Assembly (NCBI GenBank): GCA_964508345.1
Contig: CAZDTK010000001.1
Location: 236,012 to 300,011, forward strand
From: an uncultured Actinomycetes bacterium
Lineage (GTDB): Bacteria; Chloroflexota; Dormibacteria; Aeolococcales; Aeolococcaceae
Length of the DNA stretch: 64,000 nt
Reading direction: 5' to 3'
The translations under genes and the position numbers were made by a program. Numbering within the stretch: position 1 is the first letter of the stretch; the number at the start of each line of letters is the position of its first letter. Shown one piece after another: positions 44,081-56,233 of this stretch. The notes beneath the pieces are model-generated. The model searched no databases, was not told where the DNA came from, and saw only the letters and a list, made by a program, of their open reading frames with translations.

Positions 44081-44165
44081 TGGATCGGGCGAGACCCCGC
44101 GGCCCCGAGGATGATGGGCATCCTGCCGCCACGTGGCGGAGGGTGCGATCTCAGGGGAGGGTTCC

Positions 44166-44507
44166 ATGGACGGCGTGATCACGGTCGCCCTCGGCGGGGC
44201 GGGCTCCTCCCGGGAGTTCCTTGATGGGAGCCGGCGCTGGACGGCCCAGCTCCCGTCGCTGCGCATCGGTCGCGGCGTGTACCGGCCGGGGTGGCGATGG
44301 TCGCTGCACGCCGGCCCCCAGACCGGCGTGCCCTCGGAGGCCCACACCGGGTACGTGGAGGCGGGTCAGATGGCGGTGCGCGGCGCCGACGGGCGGGAGG
44401 TCACGGTCGGTCCCGGGGAGGCGTTCTCGGCCGGCCCCGGCCACGACGCCTGGGTGATCGGCGACGAGCCCTGCGTCGCGCTCGACTTCGAGGTGGTCAT
44501 GCGCTGA
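44166..44507 (+). CDS. cupin-domain protein
   Basis: ATG 44166 with a GGAGG RBS; small beta-rich protein (GYVEAGQMAVRGADGREVTVGPGEAF). Confidence 0.5.
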   Translation: MDGVITVALGGAGSSREFLDGSRRWTAQLPSLRIGRGVYRPGWRWSLHAGPQTGVPSEAHTGYVEAGQMAVRGADGREVTVGPGEAFSAGPGHDAWVIGDEPCVALDFEVVMR

Positions 44508-44660
44508 GCCGGGCCCCTCTCGCCGCCCGGGGCCGTGGGCCCCACCCCCCGGTGCTGGAGAGCACGTCCGCAACCCGACCACCGTCCCTGGCAGGCGCTC
44601 CCCCGATGGTCCATCGTCAACACCGAGGATGGGCCCTTCCGTGGGTGTGAGGTGACAGTG

Positions 44661-45617
44661 ATGAGCAACAACGCAGCCGGGCAGCGCGGGCGGGACGGCG
44701 TGGCCCTCATCGTGGTGCTCGCCGATCTGGCGGTCTATGCGGCGCTGCTCCACAACGGCAGCGTCGGCTTCATCAAGGACCCGCGCGCGATGGCCTCCAT
44801 CGTGCTGATCAGCACCGTCTTCCTCTGTCCGATGTCCGCGAACTACGGCCGGCCGGGTCTCTGGACCGGGTTCATCGGCATGCTCGGCGCCGCCACCCTG
44901 GCCTTGGGCATCGCCACCCTGGTCACCGATGGCTGGGGGGTGCTGGCGGCGCTGATGATCGGGACGGCGCTCATGTGGCTGCTCTCCGCGATCCACCACA
45001 TGGTGGTGTCGGCGACCGCCACCGCTCGGGCGGCGGCGTCCGCCGCCGCCGCGGGACCCGGCGAGCGGGGGAGTGCGGATGTGCTGGTCGCCTACGCCAG
45101 CCGGCACGGCTTCACCCAGGGGATCGCCGACCGGCTCGCCGCGACGCTGCGGGCCTCGGGGCGGACCGTGGACGAGCGCCCGCTGGCCTCGGTCCACGAC
45201 CTCTCCGGCTACGACGCCTGCGTCATCGGCAGCGCTGCCTACATGGGCCAGTGGCTCCCGCCTGCGACTGAATTCGTCAAGCTCCACAGGGACGCGCTCT
45301 CCGCCCGCCCCCTCTGGCTGTTCAGCAGCGGTCCGCTGGGCACGGCGAAGACGGACGCCAAGGGTCGCGATGTCCTGAAGGCCGCCGAGCCGCGGCAGTT
45401 CGCCGAGTTCCGGGATCTGGTCAAGCCGCGCGACCTGCGCGTCTTCTTCGGCGGGCTGGACCCCAGCCGGCTGAGGGGTGGCGAGCGGATGCTCCGCGCC
45501 ACGCCGGCCGGGCGCCCGCTGCTGCCGGAGGGCGACTTCCGGGACTGGCCGGCGATCGACGCCTGGGGCGAGGAGATCGCCCGCGAACTGTCTGCCGGCC
45601 CCGCCCACCAGAACTGA
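44661..45617 (+). CDS. membrane-anchored flavodoxin-like protein
   Basis: ATG 44661 (RBS gaggtg); 3-4 N-terminal TM helices, then a flavodoxin-like fold (VLVAYASRHGFTQGIADRLA ... CVIGSAAYMGQW). Confidence 0.7.
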   Translation: MSNNAAGQRGRDGVALIVVLADLAVYAALLHNGSVGFIKDPRAMASIVLISTVFLCPMSANYGRPGLWTGFIGMLGAATLALGIATLVTDGWGVLAALMIGTALMWLLSAIHHMVVSATATARAAASAAAAGPGERGSADVLVAYASRHGFTQGIADRLAATLRASGRTVDERPLASVHDLSGYDACVIGSAAYMGQWLPPATEFVKLHRDALSARPLWLFSSGPLGTAKTDAKGRDVLKAAEPRQFAEFRDLVKPRDLRVFFGGLDPSRLRGGERMLRATPAGRPLLPEGDFRDWPAIDAWGEEIARELSAGPAHQN

Positions 45618-45893
45618 GGCTCCGCGGCCGGCGCCACCGGGACGCCTCCGGCCCCTAGCATCCGCGTCATCGACGACCTCGTCCCGCAGCATCCGGCGAG
45701 GGCGGATCCCTACCTCGAGATCCGCCGCTACCAGGACGCCGACCGCGACGCCGTCTGGGAGCTGCACAACCTCGCCCTGCACCAGGTCGGGGCGCACGCC
45801 GGCAACGGCGTCTGGGACGACGACCTGCATCACATCCCCGATGTCTACCTGGCCGGCCGTGGGGAGTTCCTGGTCGGCACGCTGGCCGGCCGG

Positions 45894-46181
45894 GTGGTGG
45901 CCATGGGCGCGCTGCGCCCGGGGGAGGGGGAGGTGGCGGAGCTGAAGCGCATGCGGGTCCATCCCGAGCTGCAGCGGCGCGGCTACGGCCGGGCGATCCT
46001 GCGCCGCCTCGAGGAGCGCGCCGCCCAGCTCGGCTACCGGCGCCTGGTGCTCGACACCACCGAACGGCAGGTCGCGGCCCTGCGCCTCTACCGATCCGCG
46101 GGCTTCATCGAGACCGGTCGCGGTGAGGTCCTCGGCTTCCCCTGCCTCTTCTTCGCCAAGGATCTGGTGGAGGACGGCTGA
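45894..46181 (+). CDS. GNAT-family N-acetyltransferase (3' part; N-terminal GNAT motifs lie in-frame upstream with no ATG/GTG/TTG back to the flavodoxin TGA)
   Basis: RMRVHPELQRRGYGRAIL (motif A); the in-frame upstream segment from ~45660 encodes LEIRRYQDADRDAVWELHN...; the frame is continuous with the upstream gene's stop codon at 45615-45617. Confidence 0.6.
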   Translation: MVAMGALRPGEGEVAELKRMRVHPELQRRGYGRAILRRLEERAAQLGYRRLVLDTTERQVAALRLYRSAGFIETGRGEVLGFPCLFFAKDLVEDG

Positions 46182-46182
46182 C

Positions 46183-46590
46183 TCACCGCGCTCCCGGGCT
46201 CGCCACGGGGAGACCGGTGGCCCCGGCGCCGGACAGCAGGCGCTCGTCGTAGGCGACCAGCGCCTCGACGGGGTCGGCCTCAGAGCCGGCGAGGCGTGCG
46301 GTGGCGAGGTGGATGGCGTCAAGGCTGCGCAGGTGGGGATCCTCGAAGGCGGCGGCGGTGGCCCTCACCGGGGCGTCGATCTCGACGACGTAGAGACGTG
46401 CCAGCAGCCCGGGGACGCCGGCCAGGGCATCCGGCGCGTGACGGCGGAGCGCCCGGACCAGCTCCACCTCGGCGAGGGCCGAGGTCACCAGGGCCTGGTC
46501 GGGCCTCTCGGCCAGCCAGGCCACCAGCTCGACCGACCCCGCCTCCCGGTGGACCAGCTTGACCAGCGCCGACGTGTCGAGATAGATCAC
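46183..46590 (-). CDS. PIN-domain toxin (VapC)
   Basis: MIYLDTSALVKL ... conserved acidic residues; 135 aa. Confidence 0.8.
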   Translation of the reverse strand: MIYLDTSALVKLVHREAGSVELVAWLAERPDQALVTSALAEVELVRALRRHAPDALAGVPGLLARLYVVEIDAPVRATAAAFEDPHLRSLDAIHLATARLAGSEADPVEALVAYDERLLSGAGATGLPVASPGAR

Positions 46591-46868
46591 CAGCGCTCGG
46601 CGTCGCGATCCGCAACCAGCCGGGCTGCCACGTCGCGCTCCGCATCACCCGGTGGCGGGGGCAGGGGGACGGCTCCCCCCAGCGTGGGAGCTCGCACCGC
46701 CCCCCTCTCGATGAGCCGGGCGAGGGTTGCCGGAGCCTCCACCGCGGGGACGAGCCGGGCGACGTCGCGGCCCCCGCTGGTGATGGTGACCGCGCCTCCC
46801 CGCGCGACCTCGGCCAGCACCGCGCTCGTCTGCTGATTCAGCTGCCGGACAGATACCCGTCGCTCCAT
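46587..46868 (-). CDS. Phd/YefM-family antitoxin
   Basis: VSVRQLNQQTSAVLAEVARGGAVTITSGGRDVARLVP; 4-nt overlap with the downstream PIN gene. Confidence 0.75.
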   Translation of the reverse strand: MERRVSVRQLNQQTSAVLAEVARGGAVTITSGGRDVARLVPAVEAPATLARLIERGAVRAPTLGGAVPLPPPPGDAERDVAARLVADRDAERW

Positions 46869-46931
46869 TCCCGCATGGTAGAACGCGATGATCTACACGG
46901 TCAACGGCTCCGATCGCGCAACAATCGATCC

Positions 46932-47357
46932 ATGACAGCAGTTGGTGGGGCATTCCTTCTGGCCGGCCGCGTGCTCTTCGTCGCCCTCTTCCTCTTCTCG
47001 GCGCGGGGGCATCTTCAGCGTCACGCCCAGTACGCCGGGGTCGCCAGGGGCAAGCTCCCGCTCCCCTTCCTGGCCGGCATCCCCACCGGCCTCTACCTGC
47101 TGGCGGCGTCCGTCTCGGTCATCGCCGGCATCTGGCCGGACATCGGGTCGCTGATGATCGCCGCGTTCGTCCTGCCCGCGGGCTTCCTCTTCCACCGCTT
47201 CTGGACGGTCTCGGACCCGGCGGCGCGGCGCACCCAGGAGGGCGCCTTCTATCGCAACGTGACCCTGCTCGGAGCCGGGCTCGCCCTCTTCGCACTGTTC
47301 GGGGCGGCGGGCCACGTCCCCTTCGCCGTCACCGGCCCTCTCCTCAACCTGAGGTGA
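46932..47357 (+). CDS. DoxX-family membrane protein
   Basis: Internal ATG 46932; 4 TM helices (LLAGRVLFVALFLFSARGHL...). Confidence 0.65.
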   Translation: MTAVGGAFLLAGRVLFVALFLFSARGHLQRHAQYAGVARGKLPLPFLAGIPTGLYLLAASVSVIAGIWPDIGSLMIAAFVLPAGFLFHRFWTVSDPAARRTQEGAFYRNVTLLGAGLALFALFGAAGHVPFAVTGPLLNLR

Positions 47358-48808: not shown

Positions 48809-48904
48809 CCTCCGCGTCACCCGGCGGAACGCAGCCGTCGGCGGTCGAACGGCCTGCGCTGCGGGTGGTCCGCTCCCCACGGCATCGGACGTAGCATCGG
48901 GCCC

Positions 48905-49933
48905 ATGCCCACCCTCCATCCACCCCTCCAGCCCATGCTCTGTGCCTCGGCGACCGAGATCCCGGCCGCCTCGGGCCTGGTCTACGAGCCCAAGTGGGAC
49001 GGCTTCCGCTGCATCGTCTTCCGCGACGGCGATTCGATCCACCTCGAGAGCCGCAACAGCCTGCCCCTCCAGCGCTACTTCCCCGAGCTGCTCGACCCGC
49101 TCCGCGCGGCGCTGCCCGAGCAGGCGGTGGTCGACGGCGAGATCGTGATCGCCGGGCCGCGCGGCCTCGACTTCGACGCCCTCCAGCTCCGCCTCCATCC
49201 CGCCGAATCCCGGGTGCGGATGCTCGCCGCCGAGAGCCCGGCGACGTTCATCGCCTTCGACCTGCTCGCGGCCGGCGACGAGGACCTCCGAGAACTGCCG
49301 CTCCGCGACCGCGCCTCACGTCTGCGCGCGGTGCTCGTCCCAAACCCCCAGGTCGCGCTCACCCCGCAGACCACGGACCCGCAGGAGGCGGCCTCCTGGT
49401 TCGACCGCTACGAGGGCGCCGGCTGTGACGGGGTGGTCGCCAAGCCGCTCACCTCAACGTATCGCAGCGGCGATCGCGGCTGGATCAAGGTCAAGCATCT
49501 CCGCACCGTCGACTGCGTGGTCGGCGGCTACCGCAGGGACCTCAAGATCGAGGCGGTGGCGTCGCTGCTGCTCGGCCTGTACGACACCGACGGCGTCCTC
49601 CACCACGTCGGCCACACCGCGTCGTTCTCGGCCGCCGAGCGCCGCGAGCTGCTGCAGCGGCTCCGCCCGCTGGAGGGCGGCACCTCGTTCGGGCAGGGGC
49701 GCACACCCGGAGGCCCGTCGCGATGGACGAGGGGGCGGGAGACGGACTGGGTGGCGGTGCGCCCCGAGCTGGTCTGCGAGGTGGCCTTCGACCATCTGCA
49801 GGGCAACCGCTTCCGCCACGCCTCCCGCTTCCTGCGCTGGCGCCCCGACCGCGCCCCGGACCAGTGCGGGTACGACCAGCTCCTGCCGCCCCACCCCTTC
49901 GACCTGGGGGTGATCCTGAACAGCCGCGCGTAG
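48905..49933 (+). CDS. ATP-dependent DNA ligase (LigC/LigD-ligase-domain type)
   Basis: Motif I EPKWDGFR (adenylated Lys), adenylation and OB-fold motifs; 342 aa. Confidence 0.85.
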   Translation: MPTLHPPLQPMLCASATEIPAASGLVYEPKWDGFRCIVFRDGDSIHLESRNSLPLQRYFPELLDPLRAALPEQAVVDGEIVIAGPRGLDFDALQLRLHPAESRVRMLAAESPATFIAFDLLAAGDEDLRELPLRDRASRLRAVLVPNPQVALTPQTTDPQEAASWFDRYEGAGCDGVVAKPLTSTYRSGDRGWIKVKHLRTVDCVVGGYRRDLKIEAVASLLLGLYDTDGVLHHVGHTASFSAAERRELLQRLRPLEGGTSFGQGRTPGGPSRWTRGRETDWVAVRPELVCEVAFDHLQGNRFRHASRFLRWRPDRAPDQCGYDQLLPPHPFDLGVILNSRA

Positions 49934-54527: not shown

Positions 54528-55511
54528 TCAGGCGGTCTCCGCCTCCGCGGCCGCCGCGTGGGGTGGGGCGTCTCCCTCCGTGACCGCGGCGTCTCCGGCC
54601 ACGCTCCTCGCCGGGCGGCGCCCTCCCGCCAGCATCACCGCCACCGCGACCACGATCAGCCCGGCGGCCACCAGGGTGCCGGCGGTGACCGTCTCGCCGA
54701 GGAACGCCCAGCCCAGCAGCACCGCCACCAGCGGGTTGACGTACGCGTAGCTGGACACCGCCCGGGGCGAGACCTTGCCGAGCAGGTAGACGTAGGCGGT
54801 GTAGGCGACCAGGGATCCGAACACCACCAGGTAGGCGAACCAGAACAGCGAGACCGCCGAGATCCTCCCGGGATGGATCTGACCCCATTCACCCAGGATC
54901 CCGGCGAAGGCGCAGAGGAGGACGCCGGCGCAGAGCATCTCCATCGCAACGCCCACCAGCGGGCGCCGGGGCACCCGCGCCCCGCGCGCGTAGATCGAGC
55001 CCGCCGCCCAGCAGACCGGGGAGAGCAGGGCGACGGCGTAGAAGCCCGGCGAGGCCGTTCCCCCGCCACCGGTGCGCAGCAGCAGGGCCACGCCCGCGAA
55101 GCCGGCGACCAGGCCCAGCGAGGCCAGCCGGCTCAGCCGCTGGGCCCCGCGCAGGTGGGCAAAGACCGCCATCCACAGCGGCACGGTCCCCACCAGGAGT
55201 GCGGTCACCCCCGAGGGCACGTGCTGCTCGGCGAAGGTCACCCCGCCGTTGCCGCAGAACAGGAGGAGGCCGCCGATGACGAGGGCCGAGCGCCAGTGGA
55301 CGGGGGTGATCGGGTCCCCCCTGCGGTCACCGCTCAGGTAGGCGGCCGGGAAGAGGATCGCGCCCGCGACCAGGAAGCGGACCCCCGCCATGGCGAGCGG
55401 CGGGATGGTCTCGATGGCGACCCGTATCCCCAGGTAGGTGGAGCCCCAGATCACGTACACGGCCGCGAAGGCGGCGACCACGAGGGGGACCGCCGGCCGT
55501 GCCCGCGTCAT
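54528..55511 (-). CDS. EamA/DMT-family transporter
   Basis: ATG at complement 55509-55511; 10 TM helices, duplicated EamA halves. Confidence 0.8.
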   Translation of the reverse strand: MTRARPAVPLVVAAFAAVYVIWGSTYLGIRVAIETIPPLAMAGVRFLVAGAILFPAAYLSGDRRGDPITPVHWRSALVIGGLLLFCGNGGVTFAEQHVPSGVTALLVGTVPLWMAVFAHLRGAQRLSRLASLGLVAGFAGVALLLRTGGGGTASPGFYAVALLSPVCWAAGSIYARGARVPRRPLVGVAMEMLCAGVLLCAFAGILGEWGQIHPGRISAVSLFWFAYLVVFGSLVAYTAYVYLLGKVSPRAVSSYAYVNPLVAVLLGWAFLGETVTAGTLVAAGLIVVAVAVMLAGGRRPARSVAGDAAVTEGDAPPHAAAAEAETA

Positions 55512-56233
55512 CACCCCCCGGCTCCGTCCCCGCTGACGAGAGCCGGGAACCTCCTGCGGATGGCGGTGACGCTCGGGGGCTGGCCGATGCCGGCGCCCAG
55601 GTCGACGTCGGGGAGCGGTGGCTCGGCCACCGTCCGGAGCGGGATCTCGCCGGCCCAGACCGGCAGGGCCCGGTCGGAGGCGGGGTCGAGCGGCGGGCCG
55701 GTGCGGACCTTGGCAGAGCACTCGGCCAGGTCCACCGCGATCACGGCGGTCGCCTCCAGCTCCTTCGGGCTGGGCTGGCGAACCTCCGCCCACCGTCCCG
55801 GCACGAGATGCTCCACGACCGCCCGCAGGGCCCTCCCGCGCTCCTCGGGGTCGGTGACCGGGCGGGCCCGTCCCCTCACCACCACGCTGCGGTAGTTCAT
55901 GGAGTGGCCGAAGGCGGAGCGGGCGAGCACCAGCCCGTCCAGGTGGGTGACGGTCACGCAGACACCCTGGAGGGCGGCCTGGAGGCTGCGGTTGGCGGCC
56001 GCCCCGTGGAGGTAGAGGGTGTCGCCGTCCCGGCCGAAGCCGGTCGGCAGCACCAGCGGCTCCCCGTCCACGATCACCCCCACGTGGCAGATCAGGGCCG
56101 CGTCGAGGATGGCGTGGATGGTCGCCCGGTCGTAGCGGGCGCGATCCGCGTGGCGCCGGACCTGGACGCGGGGGCTCGCCGGACCTGCGATCTCCGCCGC
56201 CTCCCCCTGATCCCGCGCCACATCAGCGGCCAT
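55511..56233 (-). CDS. pyridoxamine-5'-phosphate-oxidase-family (split-barrel flavin-binding) protein
   Basis: 240 aa; PNPOx-like pattern (RATIHAILDAALICHVGVIVDGEPLVLPTGF...); start codon preceded by a GAGGG RBS; 1-nt overlap with the eamA start. Confidence 0.65.
   Translation of the reverse strand: MAADVARDQGEAAEIAGPASPRVQVRRHADRARYDRATIHAILDAALICHVGVIVDGEPLVLPTGFGRDGDTLYLHGAAANRSLQAALQGVCVTVTHLDGLVLARSAFGHSMNYRSVVVRGRARPVTDPEERGRALRAVVEHLVPGRWAEVRQPSPKELEATAVIAVDLAECSAKVRTGPPLDPASDRALPVWAGEIPLRTVAEPPLPDVDLGAGIGQPPSVTAIRRRFPALVSGDGAGG

Follow-up and report, generated by a model that had tools for sequence, protein, structure and literature searches.

Candidate near-cognate AUC initiation of a predicted GNAT acetyltransferase from an uncultured bacterium of peat soil

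The stretch of DNA analysed here (the window; 64,000 nt, with coordinates given as window positions) derives from an uncultured peat-soil bacterium and carries an LLM oxidoreductase gene, a flavodoxin-like gene, a GNAT gene, and DoxX and BON genes, in that order (Table 1). In the related lineages L003, L061 and L063, a dienelactone hydrolase gene lies between the flavodoxin and GNAT genes. The flavodoxin-like product from ATG 44661 is covered over 100% of its length by homologues of 319–323 aa and features an N-terminal hydrophobic extension of ~140 aa; the ORF listing extends this frame to 44535..45617, from a GTG further upstream. Direct reading of the sequence bears out the first-pass annotation in that the flavodoxin frame ends with TGA and the same frame then runs on, open from 45618 to a TGA stop at 46179–46181. 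The reported lack of ATG, GTG and TTG over ~280 nt after the flavodoxin stop also holds: none is present in frame across 45618–45893, and the first canonical start codon is GTG 45894.

Table 1. Features of the flavodoxin–GNAT junction (window positions).
Feature	Position	Strand	Remarks
Flavodoxin_5 (HemG-like) gene	44661..45617	+	Pfam PF12724, 77.6 bits; stop TGA 45615–45617
Non-coding spacer, flavodoxin stop to TAGC	45618..45655	+	Varying length, GC2 0.86–1.0, no signals
TAGCAT; TAG = probable relic stop of dienelactone hydrolase gene	45656..45661	+	Invariant in six ATC lineages
ATC, candidate start 1	45660..45662	+	Site of GTG/ATG start in 173-aa orthologues; 20 codons before I of IRRY
N-terminal extension, 20 codons, predicted disordered	45660..45719	+	Constant length, coding-type GC
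ATC, candidate start 2	45669..45671	+	7 nt past TAGCAT, geometry of a leaderless start
GNAT core, β1 (LEIR) to stop	45714..46181	+	Pfam/NCBIfam matches, AF2 model, pN/pS 0.31
GTG, first canonical start in frame	45894..45896	+	Residue 79 of 173-aa protein, inside β3; no orthologue starts there

Profile searches and structure prediction indicate that the open frame encodes a complete GNAT, a predicted acetyltransferase. Pfam Acetyltransf_1 (PF00583) matched with 64 bits (cut-off 20.7), and Acetyltransf_7 and Acetyltransf_10 also scored above their cut-offs. Alignments to Acetyltransf_9 and the NCBIfam profiles start near residue 31–35 of the open frame, at LEIRRY, which agrees with the earlier observation that the start-less stretch encodes N-terminal GNAT sequence. 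In the AF2 model (m3b5ec13494a8; pLDDT 89.4), residues 20–168 form a complete β1-α1-α2-β2-β3-β4-α3-β5-α4-β6-β7 fold with LEIR (45714–45725) as β1, which needs a start upstream of 45714. The placement of GTG 45894 inside the GNAT domain was thus correct. Because this codon falls within β3, the 95-aa product that starts there would lack β1, α1, α2 and β2; a look-up of this product found no record, and no orthologue was found that starts at the equivalent position and still folds as a complete domain, the observation that the first-pass annotation had named as contrary evidence. GTG 45894 is therefore not plausible as the start.

The acetyl-CoA motif QRRGYGRA is present in the translation and fits the pyrophosphate-binding pattern Q/R-x-x-G-x-G/A that follows β4; its Q and both glycines show little or no variation in the family alignment. 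Foldseek comparison of the window model with the solved GNATs 3d8p, 2q7b and 8iym gave TM-scores of 0.80–0.88. Small single-domain GNATs (3d8p, 2q7b, the HP0935 protein acetyltransferase 8iym, and RimI 2cnm/5isv) share the fold (TM-score 0.73–0.88), acetyl-CoA motif and size of the window protein, but identity is only 17–27%, and the family loop VGAHAGNGxWDDDLH is not explained by any characterised enzyme. Assignment as RimI, the ribosomal protein S18 alanine N-acetyltransferase, was rejected (TIGR01575, 37.9 bits, cut-off 86.4), and ‘RimI-like’, as the protein is named by JGI, is a generic label.

No ATG, GTG or TTG occurs in any of the three forward frames across 45618–45722, the interval that separates the flavodoxin stop from the RRY codons at 45723. 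Both the window and L001 lack these codons upstream of the fold in any frame, and in the window no CTG is available there either. A start-free run is not in itself exceptional, because runs of 80–126 codons without a start-type codon occur inside other window genes, where such codons make up 5.6% of coding codons. Among 34 coding-like frames compared in the window, the GNAT frame is nonetheless the clearest with its first canonical start deep inside a conserved protein (codon 92 of 187). A second such frame, 56222..54528 on the minus strand, has its first start at codon 143 of 564 and overlaps another coding-like frame.

Comparison with relatives, which come from peat of the SPRUCE site, revealed five GNAT-bearing lineages with ATC codons at this site (the window, L001, L002, L106 and L113) and a sixth, L102, with a remnant of the N-terminal extension; the flavodoxin genes of the five are only 79–89% identical at the nucleotide level. 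Orthologues in Candidatus Dormibacteria-like genomes start either 2–7 codons or exactly 20 codons (GTG/ATG) before IRRY. Protein alignment, codon comparison and DNA alignment all match ATC 45660 codon for codon with the latter start. The codon at this position is ATC in six of six ATC lineages, the L102 remnant counted, and aligns with GTG in L008, L003, L053, L063 and L108 (contig P0134 is the L053 lineage again). It lies 20 codons before the I of IRRY in eight lineages and exactly 173 codons from the stop in the window, L001, L002, L008 and L053. The non-canonical start offered by the first-pass annotation (CTG or ATC) therefore survives as ATC, which aligns with the orthologous start and is conserved in five lineages, but not as CTG, which does not occur upstream of the fold. 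All five GNAT-bearing ATC lineages also keep a second ATC, 45669, although the two codons between both ATCs vary; GTG lineages have I, T, G or N at its position. The sequence TAGC ATC NNN NNN ATC GA is accordingly common to these five lineages, none of them with a Shine–Dalgarno sequence, and sister lineages read TAGC/TAGG GTG GGC GGY ATC GA at the same place. No GGAG or GAGG is found within 5–12 nt upstream of 45660 or 45669, unlike in the orthologues L053 and L108, where GGAGGG precedes the GTG start; a weak codon and the lack of a ribosome-binding site thus coincide, which speaks against an AUC start. Common descent by itself might also account for the conservation of the two ATCs.

The sequences on either side of ATC 45660 differ in character. 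The spacer has a GC2 of 0.86–1.0, unlike coding sequence, and contains no Shine–Dalgarno motif; a scan found no consensus sigma-70 promoter or terminator at the junction, and RNA folding of 45606–45730 gave no structure signal (z 0.41). The scan matched only once, to a terminator-like site at 45427, within the flavodoxin gene. The predicted extension, whose residues include VIDDLVPQHPAR and DDLVPQHPAR, is 60 nt long in the five ATC lineages, and its length differences elsewhere are all in frame (+9, −27 and −42 nt). Its GC1/2/3 of 0.80/0.35/0.90 is core-like (Fisher test of GC2 against GC3, p = 0.0008). Its dN/dS of ~1, on the other hand, counts against an AUC start. The AlphaFold model assigns the extension pLDDT values of 53–67 and no secondary structure, so a disordered tail of roughly 17–20 residues is predicted ahead of the GNAT fold, whichever ATC serves as the start.

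In L008, L003 and L063, the stop codon of the hydrolase gene is a TAG located 1 nt before the GNAT GTG, which suggests translational coupling of the two genes in relatives that keep the hydrolase. This is the same TAG that forms part of TAGCAT in the window. The hydrolase is missing up to its stop codon in the window's lineage group, leaving a TAGC-ATC junction without a Shine–Dalgarno sequence, and it would have been deleted in this group rather than gained by the other lineages. Coupling of the GNAT gene to the flavodoxin gene by termination–reinitiation is unlikely across a gap of 33–45 nt; such coupling is reported to require overlaps or very short distances (PMC10666635).

The gene lacks a canonical start codon, and yet selection has preserved it in several related species; a rare ATC start is the most likely explanation. 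We consider it reasonably probable, from sequence comparison, that the GNAT gene is a functional single-domain gene of ~170–173 codons that has lost its canonical start and uses a near-cognate AUC. Initiation would take place at ATC 45660, the orthologous start site, or at ATC 45669, three codons downstream, with AUC being read by initiator tRNA and initiation being weak.

The GNAT gene could instead be a start-less relic that was uncoupled by the hydrolase deletion, lost its GTG by mutation and is now untranslated and slowly decaying, its intact appearance reflecting recent loss and recombination. Both the Shine–Dalgarno motif and the canonical start are indeed gone. The gene has been deleted in L102 and is absent in L109 and L111, and so appears dispensable in some relatives. 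L106 has changed family-invariant residues (VQAHPGDDHFDD) and has a pN/pS of 0.56. Moreover, identity is 91% between L002 and L061 and 92% between L113 and L063, with 3′ thirds at 95–100%. In this recombination-like mosaic pattern, exchange with GTG-type alleles may underlie some of the constraint that L002 and L113 seem to show. On the same grounds, we rejected a single clean ATC clade: in the GNAT tree, L002 groups with L061, and L113 with L063, both partners being GTG alleles; the ATC, hydrolase-deleted allele would therefore be polymorphic among close relatives or have been exchanged by recombination. Decay is nevertheless quite improbable. The window-specific branch has a pN/pS of 0.31, like orthologues with canonical starts and significantly below neutrality (binomial p = 7e-4), and the protein keeps every residue that is invariant in a 55-sequence family alignment. 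Values for the window, L001 and L113 are 0.25–0.31 and those for GTG lineages 0.28–0.36, with core pairwise dN/dS of 0.25–0.36 within ATC lineages and 0.30–0.40 for pairs with GTG lineages. There is not one frameshift over 173 codons in the five ATC lineages, but the adjoining spacer varies in length and the extension remnant of L102 carries a 2-nt insertion. The window copy, whose best match is L001 at 84%, has no known close GTG allele as a possible donor, and no donor for gene conversion was found: the window has no second GNAT copy and each species-representative MAG has one. A pseudogene was rejected given the lack of disruption and the pN/pS of the window branch, with L106 as a partial exception.

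Relocation of the start to a site next to the fold has a similarly slim chance. Here GAGGG 45698–45702 would act as a weak Shine–Dalgarno sequence, the start would be ATC 45720, which encodes the I of IRRY, or some other unusual codon, and the extension would be 5′ UTR. Most family members do start 2–3 residues ahead of IRRY, and in a few the annotated protein opens with MIRRY or MRRY; L002 has a GTG one codon before the I, L001 has a CTG two codons before it with GGAG 6 nt upstream, and GGGAGGGCGG-like runs are kept in four of the five lineages. However, GAGGG is 17 nt from ATC 45720 in the window, where the intervening codons are CCC TAC CTC GAG, and L106 has CTC GTC CTC there, with no near-cognate codon, so that no solution is common to all lineages. 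The coding-type GC3 periodicity of the extension and its freedom from indels in five lineages also speak against an untranslated leader. Far less probable still is a flavodoxin–GNAT protein made by read-through of the flavodoxin TGA or inherited from a former fusion, both of which the first-pass annotation had proposed. In the window, L106 and L113, the TGA shares the frame of the GNAT gene, and read-through in the window would yield AHQN-X-GSAAGATG at the junction. It is out of frame in L001 and L002, though: the distances from flavodoxin stop to ATC in the window, L001, L002, L106 and L113 are 42, 44, 43, 33 and 45 nt, which correspond to frame offsets of 0, 2, 1, 0 and 0, and at least three of five lineages would be in frame by chance in ~21% of cases (1/3 each). 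The spacers, with lengths of 33–45 nt that do not differ by multiples of three and a GC2 unlike that of coding sequence, together with the intervening hydrolase gene in L003, L061 and L063, make read-through unlikely as a conserved mechanism. A fusion split by a nonsense mutation does not fit either, because the genes are separate in every relative and neither protein search had a fused homologue in its best 120 matches. The in-frame position of the TGA is a coincidence. An error of sequencing or assembly that removed the start or shifted the frame, also raised initially, has in its favour only the prior probability for draft metagenome sequence, and its likelihood is negligible: the independently assembled JGI contig L101 (1362 nt) equals window positions 44972–46333 with one mismatch (46015) and is identical across the junction. 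Four other lineages have the same architecture, three of them in at least two assemblies; the L002 junction is seen again in L059 and L068, and that of L001 in L112. A frameshifted start was likewise rejected, since there is no upstream ATG, GTG or TTG in any frame that a single indel could connect.

For the AUC start favoured above, the choice between the two codons depends on how the gene is transcribed. If the GNAT gene is read from the flavodoxin transcript, ATC 45660 is the more natural start. TAGCAT fits the −10 type TANNNT, however, and could as such give rise to a leaderless or near-leaderless transcript from A45669, which would make 45669 the start. We regard it as rather unlikely, but worth considering, that the conserved TAGCAT-N7-ATC constitutes a promoter plus start, yielding a leaderless mRNA with a 5′-terminal AUC that is kept by selection in several Dormibacteria lineages; the −10 element would then have been created from the old TAG C GTG stop–start junction by deletion of the coupled upstream gene. 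The DNA ligase gene at 48905 in the window has the same arrangement (TAGCAT, 7 nt, ATG) and no Shine–Dalgarno motif, and its Pfam domain begins at residue 10 of the product from that ATG; this gene is probably leaderless.

To our knowledge, a non-canonical start codon has been confirmed for very few bacterial genes; the two in E. coli are infC and pcnB, both of which start with AUU. The window GNAT gene resembles these in having no ATG, GTG or TTG at the start and, at the start position, a codon one base off AUG that is conserved among relatives, and low, possibly IF3-sensitive initiation would be expected. It differs in having AUC and no Shine–Dalgarno sequence, and its present state would go back to the deletion of a gene upstream, with which the ancestral GTG was probably coupled; the autoregulatory logic of infC is not apparent for an acetyltransferase. 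AUC belongs to the efficiency class of AUU, initiating in E. coli at ~1–2% of AUG with an N-terminal Met as determined by mass spectrometry (bioRxiv 10.1101/063800). Papers retrieved in a literature search for ATC/AUC start codons were almost all mitochondrial or eukaryotic.

Leaderless genes of Actinobacteria and Deinococcus-Thermus, which have a −10 TANNNT ~6–8 nt before the start and no 5′ UTR, offer a second comparison. In the five lineages, TAGCAT is 7 nt before ATC 45669 without a Shine–Dalgarno sequence, a motif position that agrees with PMC3898074 and PMC12340547. The bases C, A and T at −1, +1 and +2 of 45669 match the preferences described for mycobacterial start sites (PMC3898074). 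Known leaderless mRNAs, in contrast, open with AUG or GUG, the 5′ codon being strictly ATG in E. coli and ATG or GTG in mycobacteria (M. tuberculosis; PMC3898074), but the candidate mRNA in the window would open with AUC, for which no precedent was found in the literature. In sister lineages, the hexamer furthermore overlaps the GTG start itself.

Existing annotations are affected as well. The JGI caller took ATG 45903 in L101, which gives a 92-aa fragment, and gene callers have produced 92-, 102- and 115-aa fragments of the GNAT gene in four assemblies from three of the five lineages. These truncated calls constitute a systematic annotation error, where the fragments lack half of the fold and the full-length protein is hidden from protein databases. 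The window GNAT gene would add to a rare but known class, genes with a near-cognate start. Its biological consequence is probably modest, namely low expression of a predicted acetyltransferase. If confirmed, it would represent a rare natural AUC start without a Shine–Dalgarno sequence that has been conserved among species-level lineages in an uncultured phylum, and one that can be traced to the loss of a gene probably coupled to the ancestral start.

The frame of the flavodoxin-like gene does run on past its TGA, as the first-pass annotation had it: codon reading shows it open until TGA 46179–46181, with no ATG, GTG or TTG before GTG 45894, and none of these codons lies in any of the three forward frames between the flavodoxin stop and 45723. 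This open frame encodes a complete GNAT acetyltransferase (Pfam Acetyltransf_1, 64 bits). In an AlphaFold model built with 55 homologues as input (pLDDT 89.4), which gave TM-scores of 0.80–0.88 against solved GNAT structures in Foldseek, β1 is LEIR (45714–45725) and GTG 45894 is residue 79, within β3, so that a product started at 45894 would lack about half of the fold. The enzyme is an ordinary small GNAT and falls short of the RimI cut-off. Comparable start-free runs are also present inside other genes of the window (70.5% G+C), and the peculiarity of this one is its location at the 5′ end; none of the other 34 coding-like frames shows a late first start as clearly, and one further frame of this kind overlaps another frame. 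A 723-aa ORF that overlaps the cupin, flavodoxin and GNAT genes in antisense is probably not a gene but an artefact of high G+C; the coding GC3 signal there sits in the forward frames.

The MAGs nearest to the window at this locus carry the label Candidatus Dormibacteria or Dormibacteraeota. The best 120 homologues retrieved with the 187-aa open frame were inspected; they are 150–176 aa long and the majority begin 2–8 residues ahead of a conserved IRRY, while a subgroup of 173 aa starts with M or V exactly 20 residues ahead of the I (for example VGGIENPHPHGAEAAETELLIRRY). No fused homologue was among these 120. In the window the position 20 codons upstream of the I is ATC 45660, from which the stop is likewise reached in 173 codons. 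An ATC at the relatives' start-codon position, followed by a second ATC three codons on (45669), is common to five GNAT-bearing lineages whose flavodoxin genes share merely 79–89% nucleotide identity. Ahead of the fold, no canonical start is present in the window or in L001, and the sole one in L002 is a GTG one codon before the I.

Sequence at the GNAT start position in the window and in related contigs (L handles)
Contig	Type	Junction
window	ATC	C TAG C ATC CGC GTC ATC GAC
L001 (= L112)	ATC	C TAG C ATC CGC GCC ATC GCC
L106 (= L107)	ATC	C TAG C ATC CTC GTC ATC GAA
L002 (= L059, L068)	ATC	T TAG C ATC GCC GTC ATC GAA
L113	ATC	C TAG C ATC GCC GGC ATC GAA
L008	GTG	G TAG C GTG GGC GGT ATC GAG
L063	GTG	G TAG G GTG GGC GGC ATC GAG
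L003	GTG	G TAG G GTG GGC GGC GGC GAG
L108	GTG	G TAG C GTG GGC GGC AAG
L053	GTG	G CAG C GTG GGC AGC AAC GAC

A sequencing or assembly error at the junction is ruled out by L101, an independent JGI contig of the same lineage, which matches 44972–46333 but for one base, 46015. This base, A in the window (GAG, Glu) and G in L101 (GGG, Gly, as in L001), is a non-synonymous polymorphism within GNAT. Every automated call on record is truncated: to 92 aa in L101, 102 aa in L106/L107 and L112, and 115 aa in L113.

The extension ahead of IRRY (45660–45719) is 60 nt long in 5/5 ATC lineages, and where its length differs elsewhere it does so by multiples of three. Its GC1/2/3 values in the window are 0.80/0.35/0.90 (GC2 versus GC3, Fisher test, p = 0.0008), compared with 0.82/0.44/0.94 in the core from β1 to the stop, and GC2 is 1.0 in the 42 nt upstream. 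The amino-acid sequence is weakly constrained (dN/dS ~1) and is predicted to be disordered in the AlphaFold model. Fixed length and a coding-like GC pattern place the putative start at or before about codon 17–20 upstream of the I, where the only near-cognate codons are the two ATCs; of the non-canonical starts put forward earlier, ATC is therefore retained, at codons 20 and 17, and CTG is not. Initiation downstream, at ATC 45720 with GAGGG as ribosome-binding site, is unlikely: the spacing is 17 nt, L106 has no near-cognate codon at that site, and the extension looks coding.

A former flavodoxin–GNAT fusion, or read-through of the stop, was also suggested by the first-pass annotation and is not supported: the frame offsets between the two genes in the five ATC lineages are 0, 2, 1, 0, 0, the spacer varies and does not resemble coding sequence, no fused homologue is among the best 120 hits of either protein search, and a gene intervenes in some relatives. 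Coupling of GNAT initiation to the flavodoxin stop is unlikely across a gap of 33–45 nt (PMC10666635).

These contigs all share a single orthologous locus, made up of LLM oxidoreductase, (cupin), flavodoxin-like gene, (dienelactone hydrolase), GNAT, DoxX and BON, with one GNAT copy per species-representative MAG and no second copy in the window. In L003, L061 and L063 the hydrolase gene separates the flavodoxin gene from GNAT. Its stop in L003 and L063 is a TAG 1 nt ahead of the GNAT GTG, an arrangement suggestive of translational coupling; in L061 the stop is TGA and the extension is shorter. In L008 the gene is reduced to ~130 nt of its 3′ end, and L053 and L108 are without it, GGAGGG preceding their GTG. 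The ATC lineages have lost all sequence up to the TAG and have no Shine–Dalgarno motif. Because the hydrolase gene of L003 and L063 ends at that TAG, the TAG of TAGCATC is best read as what is left of the hydrolase stop.

The GNAT tree is discordant with start type, which leaves either polymorphism among close relatives or movement by recombination to account for the ATC allele. L002 is nearest to L061 (91% in GNAT, 97% in the flavodoxin gene) and L113 to L063 (92%); in these comparisons very close relatives differ in hydrolase presence and in start type (ATC at codon 20 versus GTG at codon 11), and identity rises to 95–100% in the 3′ third of GNAT. This pattern suggests recombination across the locus among Dormibacteria lineages. 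In L102/L103 (~2465–2560) GNAT is deleted, leaving TAGC ATC GGC GGC and a portion of the extension, with a frameshifting 2-nt insertion, directly before DoxX; the flavodoxin gene there is the most similar to that of the window (79% amino-acid, 83% nucleotide identity). GNAT is also absent from L109 and L111.

Between GNAT and DoxX the window carries a VapC-like/antitoxin-like pair, identified from the translations by eye. DoxX directly follows GNAT in the relatives, and since L111 retains a 39-aa VapC-like remnant, the pair is either a lineage-specific insertion or was lost elsewhere. The true start of the DoxX-like ORF is probably ~19 codons downstream of the listed ATG, orthologues beginning at the equivalent of its internal MTAVGGAF. 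The JGI name 'menaquinone-dependent protoporphyrinogen oxidase' for the flavodoxin homologues is unsupported (HemG model: score 32 bits, cut-off 142).

Coordinates of features in the window
Feature	Position	Strand	Remarks
723-aa antisense ORF	44151–46322	−	
Flavodoxin-like protein, N-terminal region	44661–45100		~140 aa, hydrophobic, ahead of Flavodoxin_5 domain
Flavodoxin_5 gene, N-terminal hydrophobic extension	stop TGA 45615–45617	+	
VapC-like/antitoxin-like pair	46183–46868	−	
PIN-domain VapC-like ORF	46183–46590	−	
Antitoxin-like ORF	46587–46868	−	overlaps VapC-like ORF
DoxX-like ORF	46875–46935 region		listed from ATG 46875
ATP-dependent DNA ligase gene	48905–49933	+	TAGCAT-N7-ATG at 48893–48907; no Shine–Dalgarno; Pfam domain from residue 10
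GntR/aminotransferase gene	56267		TATAAT-N8-ATG
PrmC-like methyltransferase gene	60365		TACCAT-N8-ATG

Both ATCs are invariant, ATC 45660 being orthologous to the GTG start. In most GTG lineages and the L102 remnant the two codons between them read Gly-Gly, and none of the GNAT-bearing ATC lineages has kept this pair; the codon-17 position varies (I/T/G/N) in GTG lineages; and TAGCAT lying 7 nt ahead of ATC 45669 has the geometry of a leaderless gene. These features favour ATC 45669. For mycobacteria and Deinococcus, TANNNT is described 7–12 bp ahead of transcription start sites, and −10 motifs 6–7 bp before ORFs (PMC3898074, PMC12340547), and the TANNNT-N7/8-ATG architecture occurs at 3 of 205 start candidates here, against ~0.7 expected, including a DNA ligase gene that is probably leaderless. 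What speaks against 45669 is the reported requirement of leaderless translation for AUG in E. coli, and for AUG or GUG in mycobacteria (PMC3898074). A leaderless AUC start is a speculative possibility. Either candidate may be the start, and both give essentially the same protein.

GNAT could possibly be a relic gene, given its loss in some relatives and its decay in L106, although selection as measured in the window speaks against this. Pairwise core dN/dS is 0.25–0.36 within ATC lineages versus 0.30–0.40 in pairs involving GTG lineages. Changes specific to the window branch have a pN/pS of 0.31 (17/33 synonymous versus 24% expected, p = 7e-4), with 0.30 in L001, 0.25 in L113 and 0.28–0.36 in GTG lineages. 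The highest lineage-specific value is that of L106 (0.56), and family-invariant residues are altered in L106/L107 (2518–3036; WRLHDLAL, and VQAHPGDDHFDDLHD with a one-codon deletion), which may point to relaxed constraint or to an altered function. GNAT has no frameshift in any of the five ATC lineages, in contrast to the adjacent 33–45 nt spacer and the L102 remnant with its indels. From selection and the intact frame we conclude that the lineage of the window probably makes this protein.

In E. coli, AUC is among four near-cognate codons that initiate at 1–2% of AUG and still yield an N-terminal Met, and confirmed non-canonical starts number just two, both AUU (bioRxiv 10.1101/063800); for this reason the GNAT locus is probably a new example of known but rare near-cognate initiation, one in which the evolutionary origin of the ATC start is unusually clear. 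In practical terms, the chief outcome is a GNAT gene that is real, full-length and mis-annotated, the in-frame position of the flavodoxin TGA being a coincidence.
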